Source: Bacilli bacterium (GTDB taxonomy: Bacteria > Bacillota_I > Bacilli_A > RF39 > UBA660). From it: a stretch of 60,033 nucleotides of DNA. The notes beneath the pieces are model-generated. The model ran no database searches. It saw nothing but the letters and a program-made list of their open reading frames with translations, and was not told where the DNA came from. Positions within the stretch are counted from its first letter, which is position 1; the number at the start of each line of letters is the position of its first letter. Made by a program: the position numbers and the translations under genes. This document shows positions 1,660 through 48,716 of the stretch, in pieces. Location of the stretch: assembly GCA_030531695.1 (NCBI GenBank), contig JAUNMV010000003.1:1-60033 (forward strand), written 5' to 3'.

Positions 1660-1727
1660 CTTATCTCTCCTCTATAATATAATATCAATAATTACTTTTA
1701 TTTACAAGCTTTTAATTTTTCTCTATT

Positions 1728-3167
1728 TTATAACTCTTCTATTTTTTCTTCATTATTTATATTTATCTTTTGAGATAATTGAACTTTAAAGGTAGAACCT
1801 ACTCCTATAGTAGATTGAACATCTATTTGTCCATTCATCATTTCTACTAATGTTTTTGTGATTACTAGTCCTAATCCTGTTCCTTGAATATCAGTATCTT
1901 TATCTTCTTCTAATCTATTAAATTTAGTAAATAACTCTGGTATTCTTTCTTCTGATATACCTCTACCTGTATCTCTTACTTGTATTGTAAGATTACAAAT
2001 GTTATTTTTGTTTATACAATCTACTTTTAATTCTACTTCTCCCTGATCTGTATATTTAATGGCATTTGTTACTAGATTATTGATTATTTCAATTATATGT
2101 ATTCTATCTCCTATTAATTCATTTGGAATATCAGGTGATATATTAACTATAAAATTAATATCTTTATCTTCTATTCTTCTTCTGTCTGCTTTTACTAATT
2201 TTTCTAATTCTTGTTTTAAGTTATAATTTACTTCTACAATTTCCATTTTATTATTTTGAATCATATTAATATCTAATATATTACCTATTATTTCTAATAA
2301 TCTATCAGATGCCTCCATAATATACTTGGCATCCTCTTTTAGTTCTGGATTGGCATCTTCAGAATGACTTTCTATATCTTCACTTAGACCTACTATAGCA
2401 TTTAATGGAGTTCTTATTTCATGGGACATACTGGCCAAGAAGTCATCTTTTGATTTTACTGTACGTTCTTCTGCGATATATTTTAATAATGTCAATTCAT
2501 CGATAGTTTTTATATCAGGATTTTCTATTGTATGATACATCAAGTAAATAATGAAACCAAATACTGCATTTGAAAGTAAAAGTTCTGGATGTGATTGTTG
2601 AATTATTCCTAGAAGAAGTAATAATATTATTAATACAATTATTGGGATATATACTTTTCTTCGTATCTTTTTCAAATGTGTTAATACAATAATAATCATA
2701 AAAGTAACATATGAACCTAATGTTGCGAATAATACATCAACTGCTGGTCCAGTTATATACTTTGATTCATTAGCTGATATAAATTCCATTGGAAGTATAA
2801 GCATTAAAATACATACAATTAAATTTATTATTATAAATACATAATATGCCGGTCTAAACTTTTTTATATTTTCTTCTTCTGATGTTCCTTCTTTAAATAA
2901 AGTTATAACTATTGTATACATGAAAAAAATCATAAGCCACAATATTATGCAAGTAAAAAATATCTTTGGAATAATCGTATTAAATGGTGGTATTGAATTA
3001 AATGGAACTATTAATAATTCTGTAACCATAGATAATATTGTTACTATTAAAAGTTTTTTATAAATTCTATTTTCTATTCTATTTACTTTGTTTTTTTTAT
3101 AAAATATAAATGTTGTTACTACAGTGTATAATAATGCTGAAACAGTTAAAAATATTGTTCCTTTCAT
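1728..3167 (-). CDS. Membrane sensor histidine kinase with a multi-TM N-terminal domain; orphan, no adjacent response regulator
   Basis: H-box SHEIRTPLNAI, N-box NLVTNAIKYT, G1 DTGRGI and G2 GTGLGL. About six hydrophobic segments in the N-terminal 210 aa. Confidence 0.85.
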   Translation of the reverse strand: MKGTIFLTVSALLYTVVTTFIFYKKNKVNRIENRIYKKLLIVTILSMVTELLIVPFNSIPPFNTIIPKIFFTCIILWLMIFFMYTIVITLFKEGTSEEENIKKFRPAYYVFIIINLIVCILMLILPMEFISANESKYITGPAVDVLFATLGSYVTFMIIIVLTHLKKIRRKVYIPIIVLIILLLLLGIIQQSHPELLLSNAVFGFIIYLMYHTIENPDIKTIDELTLLKYIAEERTVKSKDDFLASMSHEIRTPLNAIVGLSEDIESHSEDANPELKEDAKYIMEASDRLLEIIGNILDINMIQNNKMEIVEVNYNLKQELEKLVKADRRRIEDKDINFIVNISPDIPNELIGDRIHIIEIINNLVTNAIKYTDQGEVELKVDCINKNNICNLTIQVRDTGRGISEERIPELFTKFNRLEEDKDTDIQGTGLGLVITKTLVEMMNGQIDVQSTIGVGSTFKVQLSQKININNEEKIEEL

Positions 3168-3227
3168 TTATATCACATCCTATCTTATTTAATTATATCA
3201 CTATTTAAACACTAAAAAAACTGCTTA

Positions 3228-3812
3228 TTAGGCAGTTATATTATTATTTTCATCAAATGGTACTAGTAAGCATTTACGTGAAGCTAGATAATCACACATA
3301 TGAACAAAGTTTTGATACTTTGTAGTTGGTCTTTCTAATACTTCATTACCATCATAATCAGTTGTCCATGGACCCATATGAGTCTTTATTACATCACCCA
3401 TAAATGTTATTTCTTCAGGAGTTAATTCAGATAATTCATCTTTTTTCTCTTCTAAATATTTAGCCATTAATATTGGATGATCAAATCTAGTATACTTTTC
3501 TTTTGGATTACCTAGTTTTAATCCATCATGTACTAGTAAAGATACTAACATTAAGTCTTTTTCATCGTCTGTATATTTATCACCTATTACTGGGTCATTT
3601 AGTAATTCATACCCTATTCTCATAGCAGCTTTAGAATGTCTTAATAGACCGCCTTCACCTTGCGCATATTCTGGATGATATTTACCTGTTGAAGCTGCAG
3701 CTACTGTGAACCAATACTCAGGTAATAATTTTACTATTTTAAGACAAGCAGTTTTAATTCTATCGTTTTTAATTAATTCTAATTCATTCTTTATAGTTTC
3801 TTCTATATTCAT
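3228..3812 (-). CDS. HD-domain phosphohydrolase family protein
   Basis: GKYHP...LLRHS...LLVHDGLK pattern (H..HD metal site). ATGA overlap with the upstream hemW stop. Confidence 0.65.
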   Translation of the reverse strand: MNIEETIKNELELIKNDRIKTACLKIVKLLPEYWFTVAAASTGKYHPEYAQGEGGLLRHSKAAMRIGYELLNDPVIGDKYTDDEKDLMLVSLLVHDGLKLGNPKEKYTRFDHPILMAKYLEEKKDELSELTPEEITFMGDVIKTHMGPWTTDYDGNEVLERPTTKYQNFVHMCDYLASRKCLLVPFDENNNITA

Positions 3813-4927
3813 TATCTTGTTACCTCACAATCTAATAATCCTACTATTACGCTATTACTAATATACCACAAGTTCTTAGGAATTACTAATCTATTATCAT
3901 TAAGTTCTAATAATTTTTTATCTAATAGTTTATTATAATCATATAAATCTATTAATTCTTTATTATATTTTTCTTTAAATTCTTTTAGATTTATTCCATC
4001 ACTTGTACGGAGATTCATTATAATTTCATAATATATCTTATCATTAGGTTCTAATATTTCTATTCCATTATCAGACATGTAATCACTATTTAAATATTTT
4101 GTGATGGACTTAGTTTTATTATATCTAACATTACCTTCATATCCTGCGGCACCTAAACCAAATCCATAATATTCTTTATTCTTCCAATACTTCATATTAT
4201 GTTTTGATCTATATTCTTTATTCTTAGAAAAGTTACTTATTTCATAATGATCATATTCTTTTAACTTAGTACATATTAAATCATACATTTCTCTATCTAG
4301 ATCTTCATCAATATATTTAGTATTATTAATACTTAGTTTTGTATGTTCTTCTAATATAAGTGAATATGTTGATATATGCGTTATATCTAGAGATTTTATA
4401 AAGTCTATATCTCTTTCTAATACTTCTAATGTCTCGTTAGGTAAAGCATACATTAAGTCAACATTTATATTATCTATACCTATATTATGACAATATTTAA
4501 TTGTATTTATTACTTTATTTTTATCTAGATCTCTTTCTAATAGTTTTAAATTATCTTTATTTATTGATTCTAAGCCAAAACTTATTCTATTTACATTATT
4601 AGATTTAAATAAATCTAGTTTTTCTTCTGTTATTGAGTCAAAATTACATTCTATTGTATATTCTACTAGATTAGTATTTAATTTAGATATTATATTAAAT
4701 AATTTAGTTAATTGTTTTATATTTAAACTACTAGGAGTACCTCCTCCTATATATATTGTATCTATTATTTCTCCATTATAGGAATCTTCTATTTCTCTTT
4801 CTAATTCTTCTAAGTATTTATCTACTAGTTCTTCATTATAATATACTTTACAAAAATCACAGTATGAACATATCTTATTACAAAAAGGTATATGTATATA
4901 GCAACCAATTGTATTACTTTTAGCCAT
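3812..4927 (-). CDS. hemW: Radical SAM family heme chaperone HemW (HemN-like, oxygen-independent coproporphyrinogen oxidase family)
   Basis: YIHIPFCNKICSYCDF CxxxCxxC radical SAM motif. Conserved lepA-hemW (hemN) synteny. Confidence 0.85.
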   Translation of the reverse strand: MAKSNTIGCYIHIPFCNKICSYCDFCKVYYNEELVDKYLEELEREIEDSYNGEIIDTIYIGGGTPSSLNIKQLTKLFNIISKLNTNLVEYTIECNFDSITEEKLDLFKSNNVNRISFGLESINKDNLKLLERDLDKNKVINTIKYCHNIGIDNINVDLMYALPNETLEVLERDIDFIKSLDITHISTYSLILEEHTKLSINNTKYIDEDLDREMYDLICTKLKEYDHYEISNFSKNKEYRSKHNMKYWKNKEYYGFGLGAAGYEGNVRYNKTKSITKYLNSDYMSDNGIEILEPNDKIYYEIIMNLRTSDGINLKEFKEKYNKELIDLYDYNKLLDKKLLELNDNRLVIPKNLWYISNSVIVGLLDCEVTR

Positions 4928-6726
4928 TATTTTTCTCCTCCAGTAGATAGAATTGATAAGAAAGCTTCTTGTGGTACTTCTACTGAACCAATTTGCTTCA
5001 TACGTTTTTTACCAGCTTTTTGTTTCTCTAATAGTTTTCTCTTACGAGTTACATCTCCACCATAACATTTAGCAAGTACATCTTTTCTCATAGCTCTTAT
5101 TGTTTCTCTGGCGATTACATGTTGACCTATAGCAGCTTGTACTGGTACTTCAAACATTTGACGAGGAATTATTTCTTTTAGTTTTTCTACTACTGCTCTA
5201 CCTCTTTGATATGCAAAGTCTTTATGTACTATAACACTTAAAGCATCTACGATATCTCCATTTAATAAGATATCCATCTTTACTAGATTACTTTCTCTAT
5301 AACCTATTATTTCATAATCAAATGAGGCATATCCTTTTGTACAACTTTTTAATCTATCAAAGAAATCATATACTATCTCTGATAATGGTATTTCATAGTT
5401 AATTGTTACTCTGGTTGTATCTAAATAATCTATATTTATAAATGTACCTCTACTATCTTGACATAATTCCATTAATGGACCTATATAATCAGATGGAGTA
5501 AATATACTGCATTTAACATATGGTTCTAATGTTGATTTAATTACTTCTCTTCTAGGCATTTTAGCTGGAGAATCTACCATTACTTTTGTACCATCTGTTA
5601 GTACTACTTCGTATACTACTGATGGTGAAGTAGCAATTAAATCTATATGGAATTCTCTTTCTATTCTTTCTTCTACTATTTCCATATGGAGTAAACCTAA
5701 GAAACCACATCTAAAACCAAAGCCTAAAGCTTTTGATGTTTCTGGTTCAAATGTAAGGGCTGCATCATTTAGTTTTAATTTTTCTAAAGCTTCTCTTAAG
5801 TCTTCAAATTTATTTGATTCTATAGGATAGATACCACAATATACGCTAGGTTTCATAGGTTTATATCCTGGTAATCTATTAGTAGCTGGTTTGGTACTTG
5901 ATGTAATAGTATCTCCTACATGTACATCTGTTATACTTTTAATTGATGCAAATAGATAACCTACTTCTCCAGCATTTAATTCTTGAACTGGTACTTCTTT
6001 AGGCGTATTAATAGCTAATCCTACTACTTCATACTCAGCACCTGTTTCCATCATTTTTATAGAGTCTCCTACTTTTACTTTACCTTCTACTACTCTAATT
6101 GATGTAATAACTCCTCTATATGGATCAAATAAACTATCGAATATTAGTGCTTGTAGTGGTTTTTCTTTATCTCCTGTAGGTGATGGAATATCATTAATAA
6201 TGTGTTCTAATAAACTTTCTATACCTACTCCAGTTTTAGCTGAAGTTAGTACTACTTCATCTTTCGAAAAACCTATATTTTCTAATTCTGTTAATACTTT
6301 TTCTACATCTGCGCTAGGTAGATCTATCTTATTAATTACTGGTATTATTTTTAAATTATTATCTAAAGCTAGATATAAATTAGCTAGAGTTTGGGCTTCT
6401 ATTCCTTGCGCTGCATCTACTACTAGTAATGCTCCTTCACAAGCAGCAAGGGAGCGTGATACTTCATATGAGAAGTCTACATGTCCTGGAGTATCTATTA
6501 AATGTAGGTAGTATTCTTCTCCTTTAAAATTATATTTTAATTGTACCGCATTTAATTTAATAGTAATTCCACGTTCTCTTTCAATATCCATAGAGTCTAG
6601 TGTTTGTTCTTTTAATTCTCTTTTATCTAGAGCTCCTGTTATTTCTAATATTCTATCTGCTAGGGTACTTTTCCCATGATCTATATGTGCAATTATACAA
6701 AAATTTCTGATATTTTCTTGTTTCAT
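4927..6726 (-). CDS. lepA: Translation elongation factor 4 (LepA)
   Basis: [21 protein letters not shown]1 motif, [13 protein letters not shown] and the characteristic LepA C-terminal domain. Start moved to MKQENIRNF, which is preceded by GAGGTG; the listed upstream ATG has no RBS. Confidence 0.95.
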
Positions 6727-12518: not shown

Positions 12519-14669
12519 TTAACCTGCTCTTCTTAATTTGTTTTTCACTTCACTAAAATCATTGTTACTATATAAATCATTTTTATATTGATTTCTCTTT
12601 ATAATAAAGTAAAATTTACTTGTAGTATCATATACTTCATTATTATTATAATCTACTACTCTTAATAAATTAGGTAGTTCTGTCGGTTTAACCGGATATT
12701 CTTTTAATGAATCTACTCCTATTACTCTTAAGTTGTGAGCATCGAAATTTCTTAGTTTGTATGCTGATTCTAGAAACCCTGGACCCGTAATTAGCAAATT
12801 AGAAAATAGTGCTTCTTCTACTATTTCATTATATCTTAGGCATGAACTACCAGTCTCTTTTAAGGCATCACATTGAATTACTTTTAATTGTTCTGTTTCT
12901 GCTAATAAGTTATTTCCTGCTTTTACCATATTATTAGCATTAAAAACTTGTAAATCATAGGCTTCACTTAATAAATTATTTCCTGCTATTTCTAAGTGTG
13001 GAGCATCAAACCTTTTTATTTTTGCCATTTTTAAACAATCATTTCCTACATATCTAAGATTTGAAAGATCTGCTTCTCTAAGGTTCTTAGCACAAGTTAG
13101 TAATCCATCTGTTGCTCTTTCTAAATTATGTAAATCTACTACTTCTATTGCTTTATCGTTAGTCATAAATCCACTATCTGTTACTCTTATATTGGAAGCA
13201 TCTAATATTTTTACTTGAGCATTTGTTAAGAAACCTTCTTTTGTTATTTCTAACTTTTTTAGAATTGCCGTTTCTAAATTTTCATCTGATGTTAAGAAAT
13301 AATTTCCTACAGATAATAAATTTGAATACTCAACTTTTGGTATACTTCTATTTCTACTAAAATAGTAACTTCCTATTCTTTCTACCGCTTGTAATTCTGC
13401 TCTTTTACAAACAACATTATTATTTAAACAATAGTTACCTACTTTCTTTACTTTATTAGCTATCAACTCTTCAAGACATCTGTTTTCTGATAAAAAGAAG
13501 CTATCTATTTCTTCTGCATTGTCTAATAATAAGGTCTTCATAAACTTATTTTTAAGACAAAATTCACTATTAATAATTTTAGCATTTTGTATAGACATTC
13601 TTTCCATATATATATTTGAGTGGAAAAATCTAGGAGGTATTACTTCGATATTATCATTGTAATAAGCTTTAATTAAATTTTGATCATCTATTACTATATT
13701 AAATGAATTGTTATCTTCTCCTTTAAATTTTATATTTCTCTCATCTTTATTTATTCTAGTTACTTCTATATTTTTAATATCATGTACTGTATCTGGGAAT
13801 CCATCTTTGAAGTAGTCATCATAAGTAGTTATTTTTTTATCTTTAAAATCTATTAGAAAGTAATCTACTATAAAGTATCTACCATCTTTTTGATAATCTC
13901 TTACTACTTCTCCATTATCAATAATTAAATTATCTATACAATAATACACATCATTTATTTCATAATTATACTTATAATACTTTTCATCTACTTTTTTATA
14001 TCCTGGAAGATATATAGAAACATTATCTTGTTTTATATTATAGTTATATTTTTTTTCAAAGCTTCTAGTTAAACCTGGAATAATCTTTTCTAAGTTATTT
14101 CCAAATGTTGCATCTGGATTTTCTACTGTATGGTTATATCTATTTTTTATTGATAGCGTATTTACTAAACCTCTAGAAAATTGAATACTTATTACACTAG
14201 TACCATATAAATCTTCTCTTTGTGGAGCATCAAAATCTTCTCTTACTATATAATCTACATTTTTTTTAACGGCAAAGAATACATAATCTGTATCTAATCT
14301 TCCTCCTTGAGTAAATGTACATAGTTCTTCTCCCTTTTGATAATACTTTTTAAAATATTGAATATCTGATTCACTTTCACATTCATAAAAATAGTAACCT
14401 GCTTCATCAAGTAATTCTTCCGGAGTTTTGCCTGTATCAATCAATACTTCGTTATTTTTGCTATATAAGCTATTTATATATTCTCTAAACTCTTCTATTG
14501 AATCATACTTTTCTAGGTCATCATAAAGATATCTATTAGGTTCAAAGTGACTTTCTAGTATTTCCAGTAATTTACCTTTTTCTTCCAAAATTGTAGAAAA
14601 AAATGTTCTACATAGATGAGCCATTCTTTCACCATAATTCTTTTTTATTTGTTGTAGCTCAAAGTTCAT
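12519..14669 (-). CDS. Large cytoplasmic protein: unknown N-terminal domain of about 370 aa plus C-terminal BspA-type leucine-rich repeats
   Basis: No signal peptide. The C-terminal half has repeats of about 22-24 aa with the pattern (V/I)G(N/S)Y(C/F/Y)L..N..L...L..L, e.g. VGNYCLNNN, IGSYYFSRN, VGNYFLTSD, VGNDCLKMA, AGNNLLSEA. AGGTGAT RBS. Confidence 0.6.
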   Translation of the reverse strand: MNFELQQIKKNYGERMAHLCRTFFSTILEEKGKLLEILESHFEPNRYLYDDLEKYDSIEEFREYINSLYSKNNEVLIDTGKTPEELLDEAGYYFYECESESDIQYFKKYYQKGEELCTFTQGGRLDTDYVFFAVKKNVDYIVREDFDAPQREDLYGTSVISIQFSRGLVNTLSIKNRYNHTVENPDATFGNNLEKIIPGLTRSFEKKYNYNIKQDNVSIYLPGYKKVDEKYYKYNYEINDVYYCIDNLIIDNGEVVRDYQKDGRYFIVDYFLIDFKDKKITTYDDYFKDGFPDTVHDIKNIEVTRINKDERNIKFKGEDNNSFNIVIDDQNLIKAYYNDNIEVIPPRFFHSNIYMERMSIQNAKIINSEFCLKNKFMKTLLLDNAEEIDSFFLSENRCLEELIANKVKKVGNYCLNNNVVCKRAELQAVERIGSYYFSRNRSIPKVEYSNLLSVGNYFLTSDENLETAILKKLEITKEGFLTNAQVKILDASNIRVTDSGFMTNDKAIEVVDLHNLERATDGLLTCAKNLREADLSNLRYVGNDCLKMAKIKRFDAPHLEIAGNNLLSEAYDLQVFNANNMVKAGNNLLAETEQLKVIQCDALKETGSSCLRYNEIVEEALFSNLLITGPGFLESAYKLRNFDAHNLRVIGVDSLKEYPVKPTELPNLLRVVDYNNNEVYDTTSKFYFIIKRNQYKNDLYSNNDFSEVKNKLRRAG

Positions 14670-20213: not shown

Positions 20214-20963
20214 TTAAGAATTTTCTTCACAAAGATATTTTTGAACAGCATCACTATTATCAGTACCATTGATGAATACTTTTAATACTTGTGTAGAACC
20301 AGTTCCTAAGTTACCACCAGCAGTAGTATTGTTGTCAGCTGTAGCTAAGATACTCTTACCAGTTGTAGTAGAAACATCAGCTCTTCTGATATCTTTGTCA
20401 GTTTTCCAAGCGTTAATACCATGAACTCCATCTGTTAAAACGATTGAGAATGTAGTTTTAGCATTTCCAGTTGAACCAGTTCCAGCACCAGATCCTGTTA
20501 CGTTAATTCTAACAACACCAGTTACAGCTCTATTAGCCCAAGAAGAAGTTCCTCCTTGTTGTAATAGATATGGATATGGTCTATAAGTTTTACCATCTAA
20601 GTTTGGTGTTACAGTTGTATCTTTTTTAGGAGAACCATATTTGTTTCCTTGTTTTGCACTATCTATTAATACATAGTAGTTTCCATCATTTAATCCTGAT
20701 GGTACAGTTGCAGGAGCATTATCTGCACTTCCTGTTCTACAATAGAATGAGTCAGATAACCACATTGTTCTAACTGCTGAAATATAGTTTTGTGCTGTGT
20801 TCATGAATGTATCTCTACGAGTATTTTCAATTGTTCTTGAAATTGCTGGAATAGCAACCATCATTAAGATACCCATGATTGTAATAACTGCTAATAACTC
20901 GATTAATGTAAATCCGCCTTGTTTTCCTTTCTTATTATTTTTTCTCTTTGCATTTTTTGCCAT
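20214..20963 (-). CDS. Type IV pilin-like protein (prepilin-type N-terminal cleavage/methylation domain), candidate major pilin
   Basis: Basic leader MAKNAKRKNNKKGKQG, then FTLIELLAVITIMGILMMVAIPA (Gly at -1, Phe at +1, Glu at +5). Gly/Thr/Ser-rich globular part with two Cys. Local G+C is visibly higher than in the neighbours. Confidence 0.8.
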   Translation of the reverse strand: MAKNAKRKNNKKGKQGGFTLIELLAVITIMGILMMVAIPAISRTIENTRRDTFMNTAQNYISAVRTMWLSDSFYCRTGSADNAPATVPSGLNDGNYYVLIDSAKQGNKYGSPKKDTTVTPNLDGKTYRPYPYLLQQGGTSSWANRAVTGVVRINVTGSGAGTGSTGNAKTTFSIVLTDGVHGINAWKTDKDIRRADVSTTTGKSILATADNNTTAGGNLGTGSTQVLKVFINGTDNSDAVQKYLCEENS

Positions 20964-21072
20964 AATAATTCACTCTCTTCCTTTCTATTATTATTACATT
21001 TTAAATATAGCATATTGAAATTTATTTTTCAATACATTTTTTTTACATTTACACTGATATACAAATTTGACA

Positions 21073-21693
21073 TTATGCTGTATATCTTTTATCTACTGGA
21101 CAGTTAAATGTAGACCCATCTTCATTAGTAATTTGGATAGAAGTTGGTGTCGTATCATTAACCTTTATTGGTTCAGTAGTTATACCTGTTTGTGCATAAT
21201 CAATTGGTGAATCATCCTTTATACGACTAAATCTTGTCAATGGGATACCTGAAAATCTTGTTTTAGAATAAATATATTCTACTAATTGTACATGATACTC
21301 ATACTTTACAGTTGATCCTCCGCCTATTCTTCTAATAACTACAAAATTATTCAATTCTGTGTCATAAGTTTTTGTTTGTGGTTCTTTATCTTTTCCAGTA
21401 TAAGTATAAGAACCTCCGTATGGAGCATTTTTAAATTCACCTGATCCTAAGTATTTCATATTCATAATAATACAATGATCAGCCGCAGGTTTAACAATAG
21501 AAGTATCACTTCTAAACTTATATTCTGCTGTTGTAACTAATTTTTCTGCATCTCTTGCATATGTATTTAATTTAGTACTTTGTAAAATACCAATTATATT
21601 AGGAGCTGCTATCATTGTAAGTAATCCTAATATAACTAAAGCTGCTAATAATTCTACTAATGTAAAACCTTTTTTCTTTTGTTTTAATTTCAC
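21073..21693 (-). CDS. Type IV pilin-like / pseudopilin protein (206 aa)
   Basis: MKLKQKKKG|FTLVELLAALVILGLLTMIAAP class III signal. GTG start after AGGGTGA. Confidence 0.75.
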   Translation of the reverse strand: MKLKQKKKGFTLVELLAALVILGLLTMIAAPNIIGILQSTKLNTYARDAEKLVTTAEYKFRSDTSIVKPAADHCIIMNMKYLGSGEFKNAPYGGSYTYTGKDKEPQTKTYDTELNNFVVIRRIGGGSTVKYEYHVQLVEYIYSKTRFSGIPLTRFSRIKDDSPIDYAQTGITTEPIKVNDTTPTSIQITNEDGSTFNCPVDKRYTA

Positions 21694-30604: not shown

Positions 30605-31798
30605 TCAATTTTCTATCCAATTAGCAGTATATGTTCTATTACCTGTCATTCCCGGTGTAATTTCTACATAAGTTTCACGATTTGTATAATTATATGGTTC
30701 CCATTCTGTTGGTTTAGATCCTTTTTCTACTTGTACTTTACTTATGTAAATTCCATTGCTTGTATTAAGACTTATTGATGGATAAATATGTATACTTGTT
30801 CCAGTACTTGATTTATATGTATATGTTGCAATTAATCTTTTTCTTGTTGTGGATATTTTTGTTAAATTGTGTGTCGTTGAAGTCGCATTATTTAGATAAA
30901 AAACACGCGTATTAAATGTAGTTGCAGTATCTGCCCATATATCCATACTTATAGTATAAGTTTCATCTTCTTCATAATTTTGAGTGTTATATATATTAGG
31001 CCATATATTTGCTGTATTATAGCTTGGCTTTCTTTTATATACTATTTCATCATCTATCTCTAGTCTTTCTGTAGCGCCTGTGTTATATCCATTTGTACTT
31101 ACATCATATATATTCTTACCACCTGTCCATCCTCCAAAGTCATAACCTTCTTTTGTTGGAGTTGGAAGTATAGCTCCACTTCTTACTGTATAAGTAGTTG
31201 GATAATTCGATATAGTTCCTCCATCTAAATTATATGTAATTGTATATGTGCCACTTTCTCTAGTTTTAGCATTATTATCTGCTTGTACGTAGTTAGCTAT
31301 AAATTTTAAATTAAATGAAGTATCTGCCTCTGTTGGTAAATCATTTATATTTACATCTTCTTTAAATTTTACTGTTATAAATAATGTTTCAGTTGAATTA
31401 GCAGGTAATGAATCATATTTAGTAAAAGATATTCCATCATCATATAATACATTCCACTCTAAGTAACTTGCTTCATCTGGTAGACCCACTACATTATATG
31501 ACTCTAACATGGCATCTATATTACCAGTATTAACTACATCAACATTAAATGAATAACTATCACCAGGTTTTTCAAAAGTAAAAGTAAAATCTACTTCTTT
31601 AGAATTACTTGAAATAGCTGCATTACTATCTATTTGATATGTACATGTTTCATTTTGAATATTATTAAAGTGTACGTCCCAGACACTTCTTTTTACTATA
31701 CTAGTACCACTTATATATAGATTAGTAGAAAGGTAAGCAAAGCCTATACTAATGAATAGTACTAGTATCAATATTAAGTATTTCTTATTTTTATTCAT
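30605..31798 (-). CDS. Signal-anchored surface protein: conserved N-terminal beta-rich domain, a split Listeria-Bacteroides (Flg_new) repeat and a nested variable domain (paralog 1)
   Basis: N-terminal NKKYLILILVLFISIGFAYL anchor. YTITYNLDGGTISNYPTTYTVRSGAILPTPTKEGYDFGGWTGG is the first half of a Flg_new repeat. About 150 aa are inserted and end in VQVEKGSKPTEWEPY. The repeat is closed by ITPGMTGNRTYTANW. Confidence 0.7.
   Translation of the reverse strand: MNKNKKYLILILVLFISIGFAYLSTNLYISGTSIVKRSVWDVHFNNIQNETCTYQIDSNAAISSNSKEVDFTFTFEKPGDSYSFNVDVVNTGNIDAMLESYNVVGLPDEASYLEWNVLYDDGISFTKYDSLPANSTETLFITVKFKEDVNINDLPTEADTSFNLKFIANYVQADNNAKTRESGTYTITYNLDGGTISNYPTTYTVRSGAILPTPTKEGYDFGGWTGGKNIYDVSTNGYNTGATERLEIDDEIVYKRKPSYNTANIWPNIYNTQNYEEDETYTISMDIWADTATTFNTRVFYLNNATSTTHNLTKISTTRKRLIATYTYKSSTGTSIHIYPSISLNTSNGIYISKVQVEKGSKPTEWEPYNYTNRETYVEITPGMTGNRTYTANWIEN
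31268..31735. repeat. Direct repeat, copy 1 (about 468 bp, apparently identical to 32462..32929)
   Basis: Read directly: the sequences match at a constant offset of 1194 bp, with lower-identity extensions on both sides. Confidence 0.85.
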
Positions 31799-31813
31799 TA
31801 GTATTTCTCCTTT

Positions 31814-32992
31814 CTAAATAGCTTCCCAGTTAGCTTTATATGTTCTATTACCTGACATGCCCGGTAAGATAACTATATCTTTAGTTGGTTCTGATATATA
31901 TGGTTCATATGGAGTAGCATTTTCTCCCTCTTCTACTTGTAAATTAATATTTAAATTATCAAATGTACAGTTATTCCTAAAACCGACAGAAAACCTTCCC
32001 ACTTCTTGATTGAAGGTAATTATGTTATGAGTACTAAAATCCATATTTTCAATTGTTAAAACATTGTACCCCTGGATAGTAGATAGCAACTTATACCATA
32101 CAAAATCAGTATTGAAACTTCCTGAAATGTATTCAGCGCTTGCTACATAAGTACCAGCTGGAATTCTATAATTAATTGGAATACTGCCTATATCACCACC
32201 ATTTGTAGATGGCCCATTTTCAGGATTGCTTATAATTATATTATTGTTGCTTGCTATAAATGTAACATTTTTTTGTGTTTCTGATATTCCGTTTACCGAA
32301 AAGAGATTTTTTCCTACTGTCCATCCTGTAAATGTATAACCTTCTTTAGTTGGATTTGGTATTGTTGCTCCACTTCTTATTGTATATGTAGTTGGATTAT
32401 TAGATATAGTTCCTCCATCTAATAGATACCTAATATTATATGTACCACTTTCTCTTGTTGTAGCATTATTATCTGCTTGTACGTAGTTAGCTATAAATTT
32501 TAAATTAAATGAAGTATCTGCCTCTGTTGGTAAATCATTTATATTTACATCTTCTTTAAATTTTACTGTTATAAATAATGTTTCAGTTGAATTAGCAGGT
32601 AATGAATCATATTTAGTAAAAGATATTCCATCATCATATAATACATTCCACTCTAAGTAACTTGCTTCATCTGGTAGACCCACTACATTATATGACTCTA
32701 ACATGGCATCTATATTACCAGTATTAACTACATCAACATTAAATGAATAACTATCACCAGGTTTTTCAAAAGTAAAAGTAAAATCTACTTCTTTAGAATT
32801 ACTTGAAATAGCTGCATTACTATCTATTTGATATGTACATGTTTCATTTTGAATATTATTAAAGTGTACGTCCCAGACACTTCTTTTTACTATACTAGTA
32901 CCACTTATATATAGATTAGTAGAAAGGTACGCAAAACCTATACTAATAAATAATATTAATATAAATATAATAAATTTATTATTCTTTCTCAT
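31814..32992 (-). CDS. Signal-anchored surface protein, paralog 2: same N-terminal half, different nested domain
   Basis: Residues of about 21-177 are identical to paralog 1. YNIRYLLDGGTISNNPTTYTIRSGATIPNPTKEGYTFTGWTVG. The divergent insert ends in LQVEEGENATPYEPY, then LPGMSGNRTYKANW. Confidence 0.7.
   Translation of the reverse strand: MRKNNKFIIFILILFISIGFAYLSTNLYISGTSIVKRSVWDVHFNNIQNETCTYQIDSNAAISSNSKEVDFTFTFEKPGDSYSFNVDVVNTGNIDAMLESYNVVGLPDEASYLEWNVLYDDGISFTKYDSLPANSTETLFITVKFKEDVNINDLPTEADTSFNLKFIANYVQADNNATTRESGTYNIRYLLDGGTISNNPTTYTIRSGATIPNPTKEGYTFTGWTVGKNLFSVNGISETQKNVTFIASNNNIIISNPENGPSTNGGDIGSIPINYRIPAGTYVASAEYISGSFNTDFVWYKLLSTIQGYNVLTIENMDFSTHNIITFNQEVGRFSVGFRNNCTFDNLNINLQVEEGENATPYEPYISEPTKDIVILPGMSGNRTYKANWEAI
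32462..32929. repeat. Direct repeat, copy 2 (partner of 31268..31735)
   Basis: As for copy 1. Confidence 0.85.
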
Positions 32993-35921: not shown

Positions 35922-36438
35922 ATCCTTGAGGATTAAATTCTCCTAAATGAAATCTATAATCAACAGCATCTATTACTTTATTTGTAGTTTCTTCTTTTAA
36001 TTCTATAGATTCTCCTGCCTTTAACTTTTCTATTGTATAGATTGTAGTGTAATCATCACCATTAGAATCACTAAATACTACAAATAATAGTTGATTACTT
36101 ATATCTATACCATTATTTGTAATAGTAAATTTAATTGTAACATTATTTAAATCTTTACTATTACTTTTTAATGTCATATTACTTATTGATAATGAATCAT
36201 TAGTATGAATTTCTTTAATTTTATTTGATGTGTTTTCTCTATTATTATTTGAATCTGTTTTGTAGTATTTATTATTCGCATCATCTTTATTAGAATATGT
36301 TTTTTCTTTTTCTACTACTTCTTTATCTTCTTTTTTAGTTTGATTATTTACAATTACTAGTGTAACTCCACCTATTATCAATAATAATGGGATTACTATT
36401 AAAATTATTTTTATATTTTTCAAGTTATCACCTACCAT
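35920..36438 (-). CDS. Bitopic membrane protein with a predicted beta-sandwich ectodomain, translationally coupled to the 771-aa pilin
   Basis: TM segment IKIILIVIPLLLIIGGVTLVIV. ATG 36438 overlaps the pilin stop (AAATGGTAG). Confidence 0.5.
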   Translation of the reverse strand: MVGDNLKNIKIILIVIPLLLIIGGVTLVIVNNQTKKEDKEVVEKEKTYSNKDDANNKYYKTDSNNNRENTSNKIKEIHTNDSLSISNMTLKSNSKDLNNVTIKFTITNNGIDISNQLLFVVFSDSNGDDYTTIYTIEKLKAGESIELKEETTNKVIDAVDYRFHLGEFNPQG

Positions 36439-38747
36439 TTTGCGAATCCTGCAGTAAACCATCCACTACATTTACTTTCTTTTACTTTTGTATTACCGTT
36501 TAAGTAACATGTAGATGATCCACTTACTACATTTCCTTTTATCCAGTAGTAGTATCCACCTGCTCCTTTTACATATTGCCAATCACCTGTTAATTTCCAT
36601 TTACCACCCCAGGCTCCATCTGGCCATTGACTAAAGTCATTATCTTTACGGACGTTAACGTAATCTACTCCGTCACCTACATATGCTTTAACTGTCTTAT
36701 CTTTCTTTGTAAATTTAATTACTGAATAATATGTTGCATTACTACTAAATTTTTTATCTGTTTCTTCAGAATAATTACTACTTCCTGCAGTACTACTTGT
36801 ATTCCATCCTTTGTATTCAAATAGATCTGAATATGGTTGTTTTGCGGCATTTTTACCTGATGGTCTAGGTGCTTTAGGGGACTTGATATTACATTCTGTT
36901 TGATCTTGATAATAATGACAAGTTTTTTCTTGATCATCTCCCCATTTAGCTTCATTTTTCTTAAATTTAACTTTTACAGTTTTCTTCCATACTGCATATA
37001 ATTTAATATTTTTATTTTCTGTATATGATCCTCCCGGAGAGTACTTCGCACTATGTCCTGTTGATGAAGTATGCCATCCTACGAACTCCCAACCATTTTT
37101 TGTTGGTTTAGTATTACTTAAATTTATATTAGTTCCGTGTGTTTTAGTTTGATTTCCTGGTGCTCCACTACCACCATTGGCATCATAAGATATTGTATAT
37201 TGTTGAACACTCCATTGGGCATAGGCTGTTACTGTACCTGATGTAGCAAGTGTTTGTACTTTTTGTCCTGCAGCATAGTTAGTTCCATTTATCTTCCATC
37301 CTGTAAAGCTATAACCGCTTCTTGTGAAACCATTATTTGATATTGTACAATCACTACCATATGTACAATTAGTATTATTCATAGTTCCAGAACCACCATT
37401 AGCATCATACTTAATTGAATAACTATTACCATGCCATCCTGCATAGGCAGTTAAAGCTTGACTATCTGTTGCGGTTAGATTCTTAACTTTACTTCCGGCA
37501 TTATATTCATTACTGCCGATTTTCCATTTAGTAAAGTAATATCCATTTCTTGTGAACGCATTAGCAGCAAGTGTACAGTCATATCCATAATAACATGTCG
37601 TCCTTGATATATTTCCTGTTCCTCCATTTGAATTATAATCAATATAATAAATTGGAGATATATAAACAATTATATCTACTGATCTGCAGTTTGTTGCTTC
37701 ATCACACATTTTTACTCTACCAAATCTTGCACCTCTGGCAGTTAAAGTTTTATCTGTTTTTGTATTATCTTCACTTTTTCTACTATCACTTAAGTCTTTA
37801 TTTAATGTTGCATTATAAGCTTGATTCCATTGCCATATTTGTTTAGTAATTGCGTTATTATCATTACTATCGCTGAAGTCTAAATAAAATCCATGTGTCT
37901 TCCATCCTGTTAGATTAGCTTCAGCATTTGTTTTAGTTAATAATGGTGTTCCTGTTTTATTGCCACCCTCAAATTTATATATTTTAACTGTTATGTTAGG
38001 TGCTGTATTATCCAATTTAAACTCTTTACTTTGTACTACAGAAGTTGATGCTAAACCTGCTTCATTACTCAACTCTACTGGCGTAACTACCAATTTTATC
38101 TTTCCATTTAATCCAACTGGAGTGTCTACTTTAACTGATAGACTATCTACTACTGAGTTTTTAAATTCATGTGTTGTAGGTGTACCAATTGCCGTTCCAT
38201 CTATATAGAACCATTGATAACTTATCTTAGCATTAGGACTAATTCCTAATAAATCTTTTATTTGAATATATGTGGAAGATTTTTTCTCAAATTTATTATT
38301 ACCATCGGGATTAAATGTTATTTGAGGACCGTCTTCTATAATACTTCCATTACACAAATTAAAATTAATCCTTGATAAATCTGCACTAGTAGGCATAAAT
38401 GTTTCATAATCGTAATTATCATTTATCTTTTTTACTCTTACAAATATTTTATCTACTATTACATCTTGTTTAGAAAAATCCAACTCTTCTATTACTTTAT
38501 TTGATACTAGAGTTGTGTAATATATATCTACACAACCATTTTTTTGATAACCAAATAAATCCATATCTTTAGAATCTGTATAAACTTTGGCACCAGACTC
38601 TATAATATTTTTATATGTATTTAATTTTTTTGAACCAATTTGACTACTAACCGCATTAATTATAGGAAAAGCAATCATAGTAATTATACCTAATATTGTT
38701 ATGGTTACTAAAACTTCTACTAAAGTAAAACCTTTACGATTTCTCAT
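36432..38747 (-). CDS. Giant modular type IV pilin-like protein with four Listeria-Bacteroides (Flg_new) repeats
   Basis: MRNRKG|FTLVEVLVTITILGIITMIAFPI class III signal. Repeats YYIDYNSNGGTG...YAGW, YSIKYDANGGSG...YAQW, YTISYDANGGSG...YAVW, and a fourth, degenerate one. Trp/Gly-rich C-terminal domain. Confidence 0.75.
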   Translation of the reverse strand: MRNRKGFTLVEVLVTITILGIITMIAFPIINAVSSQIGSKKLNTYKNIIESGAKVYTDSKDMDLFGYQKNGCVDIYYTTLVSNKVIEELDFSKQDVIVDKIFVRVKKINDNYDYETFMPTSADLSRINFNLCNGSIIEDGPQITFNPDGNNKFEKKSSTYIQIKDLLGISPNAKISYQWFYIDGTAIGTPTTHEFKNSVVDSLSVKVDTPVGLNGKIKLVVTPVELSNEAGLASTSVVQSKEFKLDNTAPNITVKIYKFEGGNKTGTPLLTKTNAEANLTGWKTHGFYLDFSDSNDNNAITKQIWQWNQAYNATLNKDLSDSRKSEDNTKTDKTLTARGARFGRVKMCDEATNCRSVDIIVYISPIYYIDYNSNGGTGNISRTTCYYGYDCTLAANAFTRNGYYFTKWKIGSNEYNAGSKVKNLTATDSQALTAYAGWHGNSYSIKYDANGGSGTMNNTNCTYGSDCTISNNGFTRSGYSFTGWKINGTNYAAGQKVQTLATSGTVTAYAQWSVQQYTISYDANGGSGAPGNQTKTHGTNINLSNTKPTKNGWEFVGWHTSSTGHSAKYSPGGSYTENKNIKLYAVWKKTVKVKFKKNEAKWGDDQEKTCHYYQDQTECNIKSPKAPRPSGKNAAKQPYSDLFEYKGWNTSSTAGSSNYSEETDKKFSSNATYYSVIKFTKKDKTVKAYVGDGVDYVNVRKDNDFSQWPDGAWGGKWKLTGDWQYVKGAGGYYYWIKGNVVSGSSTCYLNGNTKVKESKCSGWFTAGFAKW

Positions 38748-44918: not shown

Positions 44919-44949
44919 ATATATCACCTTTAGTTATTATATCATAACA

Positions 44950-44980
44950 AAGAAAAAGTTCATATTTCTATGAACTTTTT
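44950..44980 (-). terminator. Rho-independent terminator after the giant pilin gene
   Basis: AAAAGTTCATA-TTTC-TATGAACTTTT, followed on the minus strand by TCTTTGTT. Confidence 0.6.
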
Positions 44981-47901
44981 TAATCTGGACAATTTCCTGG
45001 GTTTTTATACCAACTTGATTGGATACCCCACCATGTGACACTATGATCTTTTTGACCACTACAGTTACCGGCATTATCACAGGCATAATATCTTACTGTA
45101 CCTCCATGACCATCTGTTGGGTCACATCCAAATGAGATTGACCAACCTGTTGTCCATGCCCAGTCTTTATATTCACGTCTACCACAACCTGCTGGAGCTG
45201 ATGAATAATACCAATAATTCAAATTCATATCTCCACTTACTCCACTTGTGTCATCTGTTGCATAAGTAATTATACCAGCCCAGAATTTTTTACTTCCATT
45301 TGATGACATGTATCCTAAATCCATTGCTTCATATAAATCCCATCTACATCTAGAAGTATTAGCATAATATCCTCTAGCCCATGTATTAGGAGCTGTTTTA
45401 TCTACTTTAAGTTTTAGATATAAGCTATCACTTACATTTCCGGCATTATCTATTGTTCTGAAGTATGTATAGTTCTTTCCATCACCTTCGTATGTCCATG
45501 AAGCTACGTTACCTTCATAATTCCAATTGACATTATCTGAACTCCATTCAGTATGATTTATTCCACTTCCACCTGTATCGTTAGGATATAATTCTCTTTT
45601 GATTCTCTTTGTAGACCATTCACCTGAATTGTATCCACCTACCCATTCGCCTCTACTATTTACTTTATAAATACTATAGCCAATTGTTGGTTTATCTTTA
45701 TCTACATATACATTAATATTACATGTTGTACTGTTTCCAGCGCCATCTTTTAATGTAATTGTATCTTTTTCTTTAGATGTATTATATGTATGATCATATG
45801 CAGGACATCCTGATTCTCCACCATCTGTACATGCGACTGTTATACGTCTATTATCTTTTGTCCATGTAGTTGATTCTCCTGATGTTGCACCACAAGATGG
45901 TTTAGATTTATCTATGTATACATTTACTGGACAGTTTGTAGTCCATCCTACTTTATCTTCTATTGTGACATTAGTTGTTTTCATATCAGAACTAAATGTT
46001 TTTGGAATAGAATTATTTTTACATCCTGATTCATCATCTTTACAATTAATAGTTATATTTCTATTTTGATTTGTCCATGTAGTTGATTCACCTGTATTAC
46101 CATTACATTTAGGTGGTGTTTTATCTACATAAGCATTAACAGTACATGTTTGTGTATTACCTGCGTTATCTTTTATTTCAATTGAACCTACTTTAGTAGA
46201 TGTATTAAAGTTCTTAGAATATTTAGCTTGAACACATTGACTATGACTATCACTACATGCGACAGAGATATTTCTATCTGATGCAGTCCAGTTAGTTGAT
46301 TGATTTTCAATAGCACCACAAGATGGTTTAGTTTTATCTACATAAGTATTTACTGTTTTAGTTAATTTATTACCAGCATTATCTTCTACTGAATAATCCT
46401 TTGTTTTTAATGTAGATGAGATTGTATCACTAAATGGTGATGTCTTACATCCACTTACAGCATCTGTACAACCAATATTAATGATTCTATTAGTATTTAT
46501 CCATGTAGTTGAATCTCCAGATACTGGCATATTTGGTAATGCTCTATCTAGAGGAGCTGTTACTTTAATTGTAGATTGATGGTTAAATTGATCGGTAATC
46601 ACTATTTCTCCATATCTATATCCATCATATTCAATCTTTTCTTTTGATTTACCTGAAGCATTATGTGGACTTAATATTTGTGAAGTTTGAGTAATTGTAT
46701 TTATATTTGGATTAGTTTTTTGTAATCCTATAGCATTCCATTTCCACTCAATCTTAGATACTTCACTTATATCAGAATAATCTAATTCTAAATATACTCC
46801 ATTTGGCCATTTAGCCTTATTCATCCATCCATTTACTGTATCTCCATTTATTGTAAGACTCTTATTTGGAGATGTCTTAGTATTTGATATTTGATTCATT
46901 ACTGAACCAGTTGGAGCTATTTCTCCAGCTTTCTTCTTATAAGCTTTTAATGTTACTACTGGAGGATAGTTATCTATATATACATTAACATTACAGTTTG
47001 TAGAGTTTCCTGCTTTATCTTCAATCTTAATCTTACCTACTTTTACATCACCTTTAAATTCATAAGTATAATTTTCTCTAGTACATCCTGTACCTGTTCC
47101 ATCTGAACAAGCTACTGTTACTGTTCTAGTACCTGTCTTCCATGTAGTTGAATCACCTGTGATTGCCCCACAAGTTGGTGCTTCTGTATCTGTATATACT
47201 TTTGTAAATGATTTAGTTTTTGTTAAACCATGAACATTTGTTGCTGTTACTGTTATTTTAATCTTACCAGGAACATATTCTTTTAAAGATACTGTTTTAT
47301 TTATTTCATATGTCTTTTTAACATTGAAGACATCTGAGGAGTAAATTAATTTACCCTCTTTATACATTGAATATTGATAAGATACAATTCCTTTTTGAAT
47401 TCTGTCATCTCCACCATTACTATCTGTTATAGTTATTGTAGCTTTGGAATTATTAACGACATTTGTATCTGTATTAAATGCAGTAGATATATTTATGGAA
47501 CTAGTTAATGCATTCATATCTGTAGTATAGTTTGGACATTTTAAGTATGCAGTATAGTATATTTCATTTTCATACTTGAAAGCTTTTACATAACTTTCTG
47601 CCCCACTACATGTTTCTTTTTTATAGTCTACTACTTTATCAATGTATTTATTTGATAATAGGGTCTCTAGTTTTATTGTTTTAGTTTGACCACTTACTTT
47701 TGGTTGTTGTTTCTGATTATTCTTTAAGAAACTTTGAGCAGCCATTACCATACTCTCTTCTTGAGACTTATAATATCTTTCTTTGGCTTTAGCAATTATT
47801 CCTTGTACTGCAGTTACTGAAATAATAGATAATATACCTAATATTACTATTACTGCTAATAACTCAACCATAGTGAATGCTTTTTTATTAATTTTCTTCA
47901 T
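44980..47901 (-). CDS. Giant modular type IV pilin-like protein with five Cys-rich HYR-like repeats
   Basis: MKKINKKA|FTMVELLAVIVILGILSIISVTA (Ala at -1, Phe at +1, Glu at +5). Five modules of about 72 aa with the pattern P.CG....ST.W....R.I.V.C.D..SGC...........I.D.AGN...C.VNVY.DK..P. Start set at ATG 47901 after AAGGATGTGA. Confidence 0.75.
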   Translation of the reverse strand: MKKINKKAFTMVELLAVIVILGILSIISVTAVQGIIAKAKERYYKSQEESMVMAAQSFLKNNQKQQPKVSGQTKTIKLETLLSNKYIDKVVDYKKETCSGAESYVKAFKYENEIYYTAYLKCPNYTTDMNALTSSINISTAFNTDTNVVNNSKATITITDSNGGDDRIQKGIVSYQYSMYKEGKLIYSSDVFNVKKTYEINKTVSLKEYVPGKIKITVTATNVHGLTKTKSFTKVYTDTEAPTCGAITGDSTTWKTGTRTVTVACSDGTGTGCTRENYTYEFKGDVKVGKIKIEDKAGNSTNCNVNVYIDNYPPVVTLKAYKKKAGEIAPTGSVMNQISNTKTSPNKSLTINGDTVNGWMNKAKWPNGVYLELDYSDISEVSKIEWKWNAIGLQKTNPNINTITQTSQILSPHNASGKSKEKIEYDGYRYGEIVITDQFNHQSTIKVTAPLDRALPNMPVSGDSTTWINTNRIINIGCTDAVSGCKTSPFSDTISSTLKTKDYSVEDNAGNKLTKTVNTYVDKTKPSCGAIENQSTNWTASDRNISVACSDSHSQCVQAKYSKNFNTSTKVGSIEIKDNAGNTQTCTVNAYVDKTPPKCNGNTGESTTWTNQNRNITINCKDDESGCKNNSIPKTFSSDMKTTNVTIEDKVGWTTNCPVNVYIDKSKPSCGATSGESTTWTKDNRRITVACTDGGESGCPAYDHTYNTSKEKDTITLKDGAGNSTTCNINVYVDKDKPTIGYSIYKVNSRGEWVGGYNSGEWSTKRIKRELYPNDTGGSGINHTEWSSDNVNWNYEGNVASWTYEGDGKNYTYFRTIDNAGNVSDSLYLKLKVDKTAPNTWARGYYANTSRCRWDLYEAMDLGYMSSNGSKKFWAGIITYATDDTSGVSGDMNLNYWYYSSAPAGCGRREYKDWAWTTGWSISFGCDPTDGHGGTVRYYACDNAGNCSGQKDHSVTWWGIQSSWYKNPGNCPD

Positions 47902-47921
47902 TTTAATCACATCCTTACTAA

Positions 47922-48713
47922 TCATAAATCAAGTGATTTTAAATTATTATTTTTTATTTCTTTATCTATGTATTCTTTTATTCTTTGTTCTCTTGTTTCT
48001 TCTAGTTCTACTACTTCTTTATTACTATAGTTAACACCTTGTAACATATTTAGATAACTAGCTATAGAAGAATCAGTCATGTCTTTATCTTCGTATACAT
48101 AGATATTTACTCCACTATAGTTATCTTTATTTTCATATATAGATAAGTAATTATTAAGTATTTTCATACCTATTACTTTAGCTTTATATTGATTAATTTC
48201 TTCATCTTCAACATTTAACTTTTCTATTAATTGTTTTTGTATTTCTTTTAAATCTAGCATGTATTCTAATTGGTAGTATCCTCTTACTACTCCTGTATAT
48301 ACTTTTGCACCATTATCTTTAAAAGTATTATCATTCATTATAAACTGAAAGTTTTCTTTAATCTTTTTTTCTACATTACTAGCATACTTATTTTGTTGTT
48401 TTACATAAGTATCTAGCTTATTATCTTTAATTGCTTGATCATTTGGTTTTTCTCTCATATAGCAATCTGGACCAGTCATCAAATAATTACCATCTATTTT
48501 ATCTACATTAATATATTTTGATAGTGATTCTTTACTAGAACCATTTATTACTAATTGATTAATTTTATTTAATTTCTTTTCTACTGCACTGCTTTTTGAT
48601 GATTTTACAATTATTAGTATTAGTGATGCTATTAATAAAATTGCTGCTGTTACTACTAATATAATAATTAATATTTTATTAATTTTATTTTTATTTTCTC
48701 TTTTCTTTTTCAT
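47922..48713 (-). CDS. Bitopic membrane protein, paralog 2 of a tandem pair upstream of the giant pilin
   Basis: N-terminal TM segment ILIIILVVTAAILLIASLILII. Shares LVINGSSKE..., MTGPDCYM, YQLEYM and YLNMLQGVNY with its neighbour. AAGGAG RBS. Confidence 0.55.
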   Translation of the reverse strand: MKKKRENKNKINKILIIILVVTAAILLIASLILIIVKSSKSSAVEKKLNKINQLVINGSSKESLSKYINVDKIDGNYLMTGPDCYMREKPNDQAIKDNKLDTYVKQQNKYASNVEKKIKENFQFIMNDNTFKDNGAKVYTGVVRGYYQLEYMLDLKEIQKQLIEKLNVEDEEINQYKAKVIGMKILNNYLSIYENKDNYSGVNIYVYEDKDMTDSSIASYLNMLQGVNYSNKEVVELEETREQRIKEYIDKEIKNNNLKSLDL

Positions 48714-48716
48714 AAA

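Follow-up and report, generated by a model that had tools for sequence, protein, structure and literature searches.

A large pilin-like protein with five Cys-rich Ig-like modules, a candidate modular type IV pilin, in an uncultured gut Bacilli genome

The gene and its N-terminus

The window, a stretch of 60,033 nucleotides from contig JAUNMV010000003.1 of a Bacilli bacterium (assembly GCA_030531695.1), carries on its minus strand a gene for a large modular pilin-like protein (Table 1), a candidate type IV pilin. No ribosome-binding site was found at the first ATG of the open reading frame (ORF), at 47925, which overlaps the stop of the upstream gene. The probable true start is the ATG at 47901, giving 973 amino acids (aa), because an AAGGA Shine-Dalgarno sequence lies 10 nt upstream of it and the public gene call for the identical protein (P0001) is also 973 aa. 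An earlier reading of the stretch, made without database searches (the sequence-only reading), had placed the gene at 44980-47901 with about 970 aa, in agreement with this internal start.

The N-terminus is of the prepilin type. The precursor reads MKKINKKA followed, after the predicted cleavage site, by FTMVELLAVIVILGIL, with an FTMVE motif at the mature N-terminus. The class III signal seen in the sequence-only reading was confirmed by Pfam PF07963 (N_methyl; 22.5 bits, cut-off 21.2) and NCBIfam TIGR02532 (21.3 bits, cut-off 16.3), both above the curated threshold, and all features of such a signal peptide are present: a short basic leader, G or A at position -1, Phe at +1, Glu at +5 and then a hydrophobic segment some 20 residues long. 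Phe+1 and Glu+5 (F9 and E13 of the precursor) are invariant in an alignment of 42 homologues. Sequence matches in the PDB are limited to the N-terminal helix and comprise geopilin and S. sanguinis PilE1. The features of a sortase-anchored adhesin (Sec signal and C-terminal LPXTG, hydrophobic stretch and basic tail) are absent from this prepilin-type protein, and a window-wide regular expression scan for LPXTG-like sorting signals found none in this or any other real ORF.

Table 1. Features of the large pilin-like gene and of related or adjoining genes in the window
Feature	Coordinates	Strand	Remarks
Whole ORF, large modular pilin-like protein	44980..47925	minus	981 aa from first ATG
Short basic leader MKKINKKA	47878..47901	minus	predicted prepilin-peptidase cleavage before Phe, placed by the motif
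Mature N-terminus FTMVELLAVIVILGIL... and long alpha-1 helix	47719..47877	minus	invariant F1/E5; predicted helix 12-61 (973-aa model)
Small pilin globular head, invariant Cys pair	47497..47718	minus	alignment of homologues and structure model
D1, first beta-sandwich after the pilin module	47188..47496	minus	structure model; also in the 771-aa paralogue
Cys module M1, 4 Cys	46969..47187	minus	aa 247-319
W1, Trp-rich 140-aa beta-sandwich	46549..46968	minus	pLDDT >90; also in the 771-aa paralogue, 28% identity
Cys module M2, Cys2 and Cys3 only, without Cys1 and Cys4	46333..46548	minus	aa 460-531
Cys module M3, 4 Cys	46120..46332	minus	aa 531-602
Cys module M4, 4 Cys, KVGW replaces AGN	45907..46119	minus	aa 602-673
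Cys module M5, 4 Cys	45694..45906	minus	aa 673-744
W2, Trp-rich domain with DNAGN	45388..45693	minus	sub-threshold OmpL47-type match
C-terminal Trp/Gly/Cys-rich domain, 6 Cys, DNAGN	44983..45387	minus	pLDDT 30-50, poorly modelled
Two paralogous bitopic proteins (263 and 265 aa, 42% identical), N-terminal transmembrane helix	47922..49514	minus	
771-aa pilin-like paralogue, 12 Cys, RKGFTLVE N-terminus	36432..38747	minus	N_methyl and 3 Flg_new (Listeria-Bacteroides) repeats
Two small pilin genes (249 and 206 aa), candidate filament subunits	20214..21693	minus	beside nfo-PBP-efp

Domain layout and predicted structure

A full-length model was made with AlphaFold2 (AF2) from an alignment of 42 sequences and had a mean predicted local distance difference test score (pLDDT) of 79.6. 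In the 973-aa numbering its order is a helix (12-61), a small sheet (73-126), a beta-sandwich (136-236), the Cys module M1, a Trp-rich sandwich (W1), the modules M2-M5, a second Trp-rich domain (W2) and a C-terminal domain. The pilin module comprises aa 1-143, and the remaining ~840 residues are predicted to form about ten serial beta-sandwiches, modelled at pLDDT 85-94 (modules 2-5 at 85-91). In the model, the 50-residue N-terminal helix, the small antiparallel sheet and the invariant Cys pair together correspond to a pilin fold.

The sequence-only reading had given the Cys pair of the head as Cys106 and Cys130. The pair is real, but these numbers follow the 981-aa frame and become Cys98 and Cys122 in the 973-aa protein. 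What had been described as one pilin-like head of ~230 aa is divided in the AF2 model into a pilin module of ~135 aa and a separate beta-sandwich. The two interspersed Trp-rich modules are present; however, W1 parts M1 from M2-M5 and W2 stands after M5, and the five Cys modules are not contiguous. A Foldseek search with the full model returned only generic immunoglobulin (Ig)-like domain strings (GhpA, TEP1, complement C3 and DSCAM) with TM-scores below 0.25, which are uninformative.

The five Cys modules

The five modules of 71-73 aa (nt 45694..47187) were found by regular expression, by MAFFT alignment and by hidden Markov model. They are 31-51% identical pairwise, with BLASTP E-values from 4e-14 to 9e-25. 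A profile built from the modules of other proteins alone recovers exactly these five, with 74-91 bits each and independent E-values of 5e-25 to 4e-30, in accordance with the five Cys-rich modules of ~72 aa that had been proposed. Neither a DNA-level tandem repeat nor a recombination signature was found within the gene, and since the DNA shows no tandem repeat the module duplications are regarded as ancient.

The family consensus is P-x-C...G-x-S-T-x-W-T...R-T-I-x-V-x-C-x-D-x-x-S-G-C...I-T-I-x-D-x-A-G-N...C-x-V-N-V-Y-V-D-K. The claim that each module shows the full pattern with three to four Cys needs two corrections: M2 has two Cys only, and M4, which has all four, carries KVGW where AGN is expected (Table 1). 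Covariation of the Cys positions was analysed in 251 non-identical instances of the module, taken from 81 homologues. Cys1 and Cys4 occurred together in 177 instances and were jointly missing in 26, with 4 discordant cases (Fisher p = 3e-29, without correction for phylogeny), and Cys2 and Cys3 were near-invariant, both being present in 238 of the 251. Because Cys1 and Cys4 occur together and Cys2 and Cys3 hardly vary, the pattern suggests two disulfides per module, one joining the first and last strands (Cys1-Cys4) and one acting as a short loop staple (Cys2-Cys3). A single module, modelled by AF2 from a 66-sequence alignment, is predicted as a beta-sandwich of five strands with a pLDDT of 97.5. 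The earlier proposal of disulfide-stabilised extracellular domains is consistent with both the covariation and the model.

The whole protein has 26 Cys, an even number, corresponding to 2.65% of its residues, compared with an average of 0.99% in the other ORFs of the window. As Firmicutes generally keep Cys out of exported proteins (Daniels et al., PMC2823432), such a Cys load is unusual for an exported Bacillota protein, and the remark to this effect in the sequence-only reading was well founded.

Family assignment of the modules

When the whole protein and its separate domains were scanned with Pfam and NCBIfam, only N_methyl and TIGR02532 passed their cut-offs. A match to a well-characterised non-adhesive family had been named in advance as a result that would speak against the proposal; the modules of the window reached the threshold of no family. 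HYR (PF02494) had no match to the whole protein at E<=1, nor to the single modules of the window at E<=10. A census of 66 diverse modules matched 36 families, of which 25 were listed; DUF7743 had 20 weak matches (best E 0.0012), HYR 8 weak matches (best E 0.0054), Big_3_2 4 and Big_13 2, none of them significant. HYR_4C (PF23237) was not matched by the window protein or its modules and is absent among the 25 listed of the 36 families; it was seen once, weakly, in the Cys-free homologue P0152 (24.2 bits, cut-off 27). DUF7743 (PF24893, cut-off 27 bits) had no match in the window protein either; some full-length homologues, such as P0012 (35.4 bits) and P0022 (37.9 bits), exceed its cut-off, but only through the sum of weak matches, with 0 individual stretches above it.

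A profile search of 1.84 billion representative proteins matched 7,052 of them at E<=1e-3, of which 542 reached E<=1e-30, and a single protein has as many as 38 copies. Many of the best matches are giant proteins with Sec-type N-termini, and those that were scanned sum to Big_13, Big_3_2 and DUF7743. Because the family scans stay below threshold and the relatives sum to these three families, the Cys module is placed within the very large superfamily of bacterial Ig-like (D-x-AGN) repeats, where it forms a branch of its own. It resembles the Ig-like repeats of giant adhesins (Big_13, PF19077; Big_3_2, PF12245; DUF7743; the SiiE BIg domain, 2yn3) in the D-x-AGN...V-x-V-D-x-x-P ending and in the beta-sandwich, but differs from them in its Cys, since those repeats are Cys-free and have SDxxSGV in place of CxDxxSGC, and the modules of the window fall under every family threshold. 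With HYR and HYR_4C it shares a length of ~70-80 aa and the Ig-like fold class, and with HYR_4C a conserved Cys pattern, but the window's own modules do not match HYR. The comparison with HYR and Ig-like endings in the sequence-only reading is therefore fair for the general fold class, while membership in the HYR family is weakly supported.

The structure comparisons gave no solved homologue of the module. Foldseek with the single module found no significant PDB neighbour, the best being an Ig domain of myelin-associated glycoprotein (E 0.4, TM-score 0.55), and the profile of 66 modules compared with all PDB chains gave nothing significant, with only a D-x-AGN-level resemblance to SiiE, R28 and a chitinase FnIII domain. 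The W2 domain matched the OmpL47-type beta-barrel domain (NCBIfam NF047446) with 32.7 and 31.3 bits (E ~1e-7), under the cut-off of 40, and is likely a distant relative of that domain by this profile comparison.

Homologues and sequence divergence

The 83 homologues collected are 545-1,677 aa long; ~75 have N_methyl and 81 have 1-9 modules. The pilin N-terminus is thus generally retained, and the result named in advance as a refutation, a Sec signal with LPXTG in its place in most homologues, did not arise. A single source name is attached to the homologues, 'prepilin-type N-terminal cleavage/methylation domain-containing protein'; it belongs to a Bacilli metagenome-assembled genome (MAG). The genome matches are MAGs of uncultured gut Bacilli, 'Tenericutes' and 'Mycoplasma sp. 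CAG:877'.

The similarity to the closest homologues declines along the protein, with 83-85% identity in the helix and head but 42% and 23% in the C-terminal domain. A conserved anchor with a variable tip is a pattern typical of adhesins. The C-terminal domain, the fastest-diverging part, was found in five close orthologues only (local BLAST against 224 collected proteins), and other family members have different Cys/Trp-rich tails. In two of these (P0045 and P0082) the C-termini match Pfam TSP_1/TSP1_spondin in place of the window's C-terminal domain, and in four others (P0098, P0214, P0223 and P0224) they have W-x-x-W…C motifs such as WGSWNSWG, resembling thrombospondin type 1. On these matches, the tails represent a putative eukaryote-style adhesion module on a bacterial pilin.

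Taken together, the balance of the evidence leans towards a modular type IV pilin that is inserted into a filament and displays an adhesin stalk at its tip. The leader and the FTMVE motif would direct the protein to a prepilin peptidase, and the hydrophobic alpha-1 helix with the small disulfide-bonded head would form the pilin module for processing and filament insertion. This module would be inserted into, and most likely cap, a type IV or Com-like filament of small pilins, with the machinery encoded elsewhere in the genome; because of the ~840 residues of extra mass only a position at the tip would be possible. A rod of about ten beta-sandwiches, five of them disulfide-stapled, would hold the C-terminal domain tens of nanometres from the cell, and the disulfides may lend the thin stalk mechanical and protease resistance. 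The variable Trp/Cys-rich C-terminal domain is the proposed ligand-binding tip, which would act as an adhesin in the gut.

It is improbable that the protein is instead a minor pilin or pseudopilin with no adhesive role, for example in DNA capture for a competence pilus or as a structural spacer in which the repeats serve as a ruler. The N-terminus has a weak similarity to the ComGC, GD, GE, GF and GspG models, and among the type IV filaments of monoderms, Com pili are the most frequent kind (PMC7212644). The scores with these models are however far under the equivalog cut-offs, the Pfam and NCBIfam scans of the protein gave no DNA-binding or enzymatic domain, and variation of a ligand or antigen would better explain why the tip diverges rapidly and the number of repeats varies.

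Genomic context and pilus machinery

The interval between rpmF (L32) and addB behaves as a variable slot, spanning 44928..49587 in the window, 2016..12996 in the relative L001 and 3451..14178 in the relative L084. The slot contains one large pilin-like gene in the window and three paralogues in each of the two relatives, and the small ORFs that accompany them differ (100, 120, 177 and 258-265 aa). The first ~460 residues are common to the paralogues of L001, which differ beyond that point. In other loci the large pilin-like genes occur singly among housekeeping genes. The 771-aa paralogue elsewhere in the window has the head, D1 and W1 in common with the large protein at 27-28% identity.

All window ORFs of 110 aa or more were scanned against Pfam, except AddA and AddB, which were recognised by sequence and by annotated L001 relatives. 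Related loci amounting to 1.2 Mb were searched for PilB/T/C/D/M/N/O by motif and by phmmer. Machinery adjoining pilins was found in cultured Bacillaceae and, among the MAGs, in one locus (L049), with a PilB/ComGA-like ATPase only. This locus (1657..6203), from a low-GC Erysipelotrichia MAG, is syntenic with the small-pilin locus of the window (pilins-nfo-PBP-efp) and has six small pilins beside the ATPase, which is divergent and has 397 aa; in the window a GHL10 gene is found at the matching position and no ATPase is there. Judged by sequence, at least one MAG whose small-pilin locus is syntenic has type IV filament machinery.

The distribution of the genes bears on a second explanation, which is the chief alternative but less probable than the filament reading: the pilin-like N-terminus would be an export signal and membrane anchor only, and the protein a stand-alone, cell-bound adhesin stalk that passes through the wall and is never polymerised. 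In these gut Bacilli, such a mode of display would replace that by LPXTG and sortase. It agrees with the scattered positions of the large pilin-like genes, which stand singly between housekeeping genes and far from any machinery, with the presence of several per genome fragment and with the lack of LPXTG substrates in the window. It also agrees with the use of the homologous Cys-free repeat in giant surface proteins of the classical kind, many of which have a Sec-type N-terminus. Against it stand the small pilins in the window, the ATPase at the syntenic locus of the related MAG and the invariance of Phe1 and Glu5. Glu5 of pilins is needed for filament assembly and not for cleavage or anchoring, and because it is invariant real assembly is favoured over mere anchoring.

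Several points weigh against the filament-inserted adhesin. Prepilin peptidase, PilB/T, PilC, PilM/N/O and thiol oxidase were not found in the 60-kb window by the Pfam scan, and in the MAG loci examined the surroundings of the large pilin-like genes, up to a distance of 10 kb, contained none of that machinery. A single tip complex would not need as many as four pilin-like genes in 60 kb, of which two are very large. The residue at -1 is Ala (Ala16 of the 981-aa frame; codon 47878..47880, minus strand) and not the usual Gly, which is found in at least 90% of the 42 aligned homologues, and this may affect the efficiency of processing. The disulfides and domain folds are predictions.

A related low-GC Bacilli MAG (L034, 14172..18756) has a Tad-type locus with TadE-like proteins, a CpaE/TadZ-like ATPase, a CpaF-like ATPase and two TadB/C-like proteins. 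Since a small type IV pilin gene is only ~4 kb away from this locus, that group may have two pilus systems side by side. The Tad-type 'pilin-like' proteins of the gut clade TANB77 (PMC11680825) were considered as relatives of the large protein and found to be unrelated, being small proteins of 143-236 aa next to a CpaF ATPase.

The four-Cys form and the pilin N-terminus

The distribution of the module with all four Cys follows the N-terminus. Among 1,692 module instances in the 224 collected proteins, taken from the top of the ranked list and not corrected for relatedness, the CCCC pattern was found in 495 of 678 instances in pilin-fronted proteins versus 60 of 1,014 in the rest. Most of those 60 are in N-terminally truncated fragments that start inside the pilin helix or head (e.g. 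P0109, P0180, P0167 and P0207), and the clear exceptions are few, one with a Sec signal (P0200) and two with a transmembrane anchor (P0201 and P0129). The giant proteins with Sec-type N-termini have Cys-free versions of the module. The apparent near-confinement of the four-Cys form to pilin-fronted proteins is a strong lead from these sequence counts, and it hints at a coupling of the pilin export route and oxidative folding in Bacillota.

B. subtilis ComGC undergoes oxidative folding through BdbDC. A far-reaching interpretation, speculative and rather unlikely as it stands, is that the four-Cys module marks folding specific to an export route, and that the prepilin route, not sortase, is the main display of giant, rapidly varying adhesins in uncultured gut Bacilli. 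If true, in Bacillota only proteins of the type IV pilin route would reach oxidative folding, as ComGC does via BdbDC; a Cys-free Ig-like adhesin repeat could evolve into a double-disulfide, mechanically tough variant; and giant adhesins would be concentrated in the variable slot between rpmF and addB.

Relation to known systems

Modular pilins were surveyed by Raynaud et al. in 2021, who found more than 1,200 proteins in 264 architectures, including an 860-aa example with 12 repeats (PMC8179133). They are defined by an N-terminal pilin motif or module and at least one domain that is not pilus-specific (PMC8179133), which describes the protein of the window. The statement in the sequence-only reading that the architecture was not a described type is thus overstated; multi-domain modular pilins up to 860 aa are on record, the concept is already published (PMC8179133) and the protein is not a new kind of system.

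The S. sanguinis PilB (vWA module) and PilC (lectin module) are adhesins presented by filaments (PMC8179133). The window protein is like them in its class III signal and pilin module, its C-terminal grafted modules, its monoderm host and its presumed filament presentation for adhesion. It is unlike them in that they are bimodular with recognisable domains (PilB is 50.5 kDa), whereas here about ten predicted beta-sandwiches follow the pilin module, the repeat unit has no family model, the gene lies outside a pilus operon and the function is predicted only. The large minor pilins CofB and TcpB (type IVb) come from diderms and are encoded in pilus operons. They likewise have a pilin module followed by beta-rich domains and a proposed position at the filament tip, but no sequence similarity between them and the window protein was found, and CofB is a trimer (PMC8179133).

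What is new is the unannotated module with its two predicted disulfides, its near-restriction to pilin-fronted proteins with Cys-free relatives in giant Sec-type proteins, and the expansion of such proteins in uncultured gut Bacilli, in the variable slot between rpmF and addB. The 72-aa module merits a family model of its own, because more than 85% of the protein has no annotation in current libraries. The host group consists of uncultured gut Bacilli with small genomes and an almost uncharacterised surface biology. In such bacteria, a family of pilins of ~1,000 residues, in which the number of disulfide-stapled domains varies and the tips evolve fast, would be a foremost candidate for attachment to host or microbes. 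With such proteins, the modular pilin idea would also reach beyond a single grafted domain to long stalks.

Neighbouring and other genes of the window

The two bitopic genes lie directly upstream of the large pilin gene, with a 3-nt gap and a 4-nt overlap, and are probably co-transcribed with it from a promoter-like site at 49563-49535. Their products belong to no Pfam or NCBIfam family; the sole outside similarity, weak (E 0.048), is to PDB 4ec6, the VirB8-like TraM domain of plasmid pIP501. In L001, three copies are interleaved with the three large pilin genes. The proteins were rejected as dedicated partners of the large pilins, since they accompany them in one close relative only (L001-L003), while L084 and every other locus lack them.

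Immediately upstream of yceD-rpmF (50288..50842, minus strand) is a gene for a 184-aa protein with an N-terminal transmembrane helix and a beta-rich body, which belongs to no family. It is retained in relatives, with 64% identity in L001, and is also found in L025, L009 and L010. The 716-aa protein at 12519..14669 (minus strand) has BspA-type leucine-rich repeats and 12 Cys, with no recognisable N-terminal signal peptide. At 30605..32992 (minus strand) there are tandem paralogues of 397 and 392 aa with one Flg_new repeat each, in which the first ~90 residues are almost identical (…KKYLILILVLFISIGFAYLSTNLYISGTSIVKRSVWDVHF…). Their N-terminus has a hydrophobic segment that looks uncleaved and is neither a standard Sec signal nor a prepilin signal.

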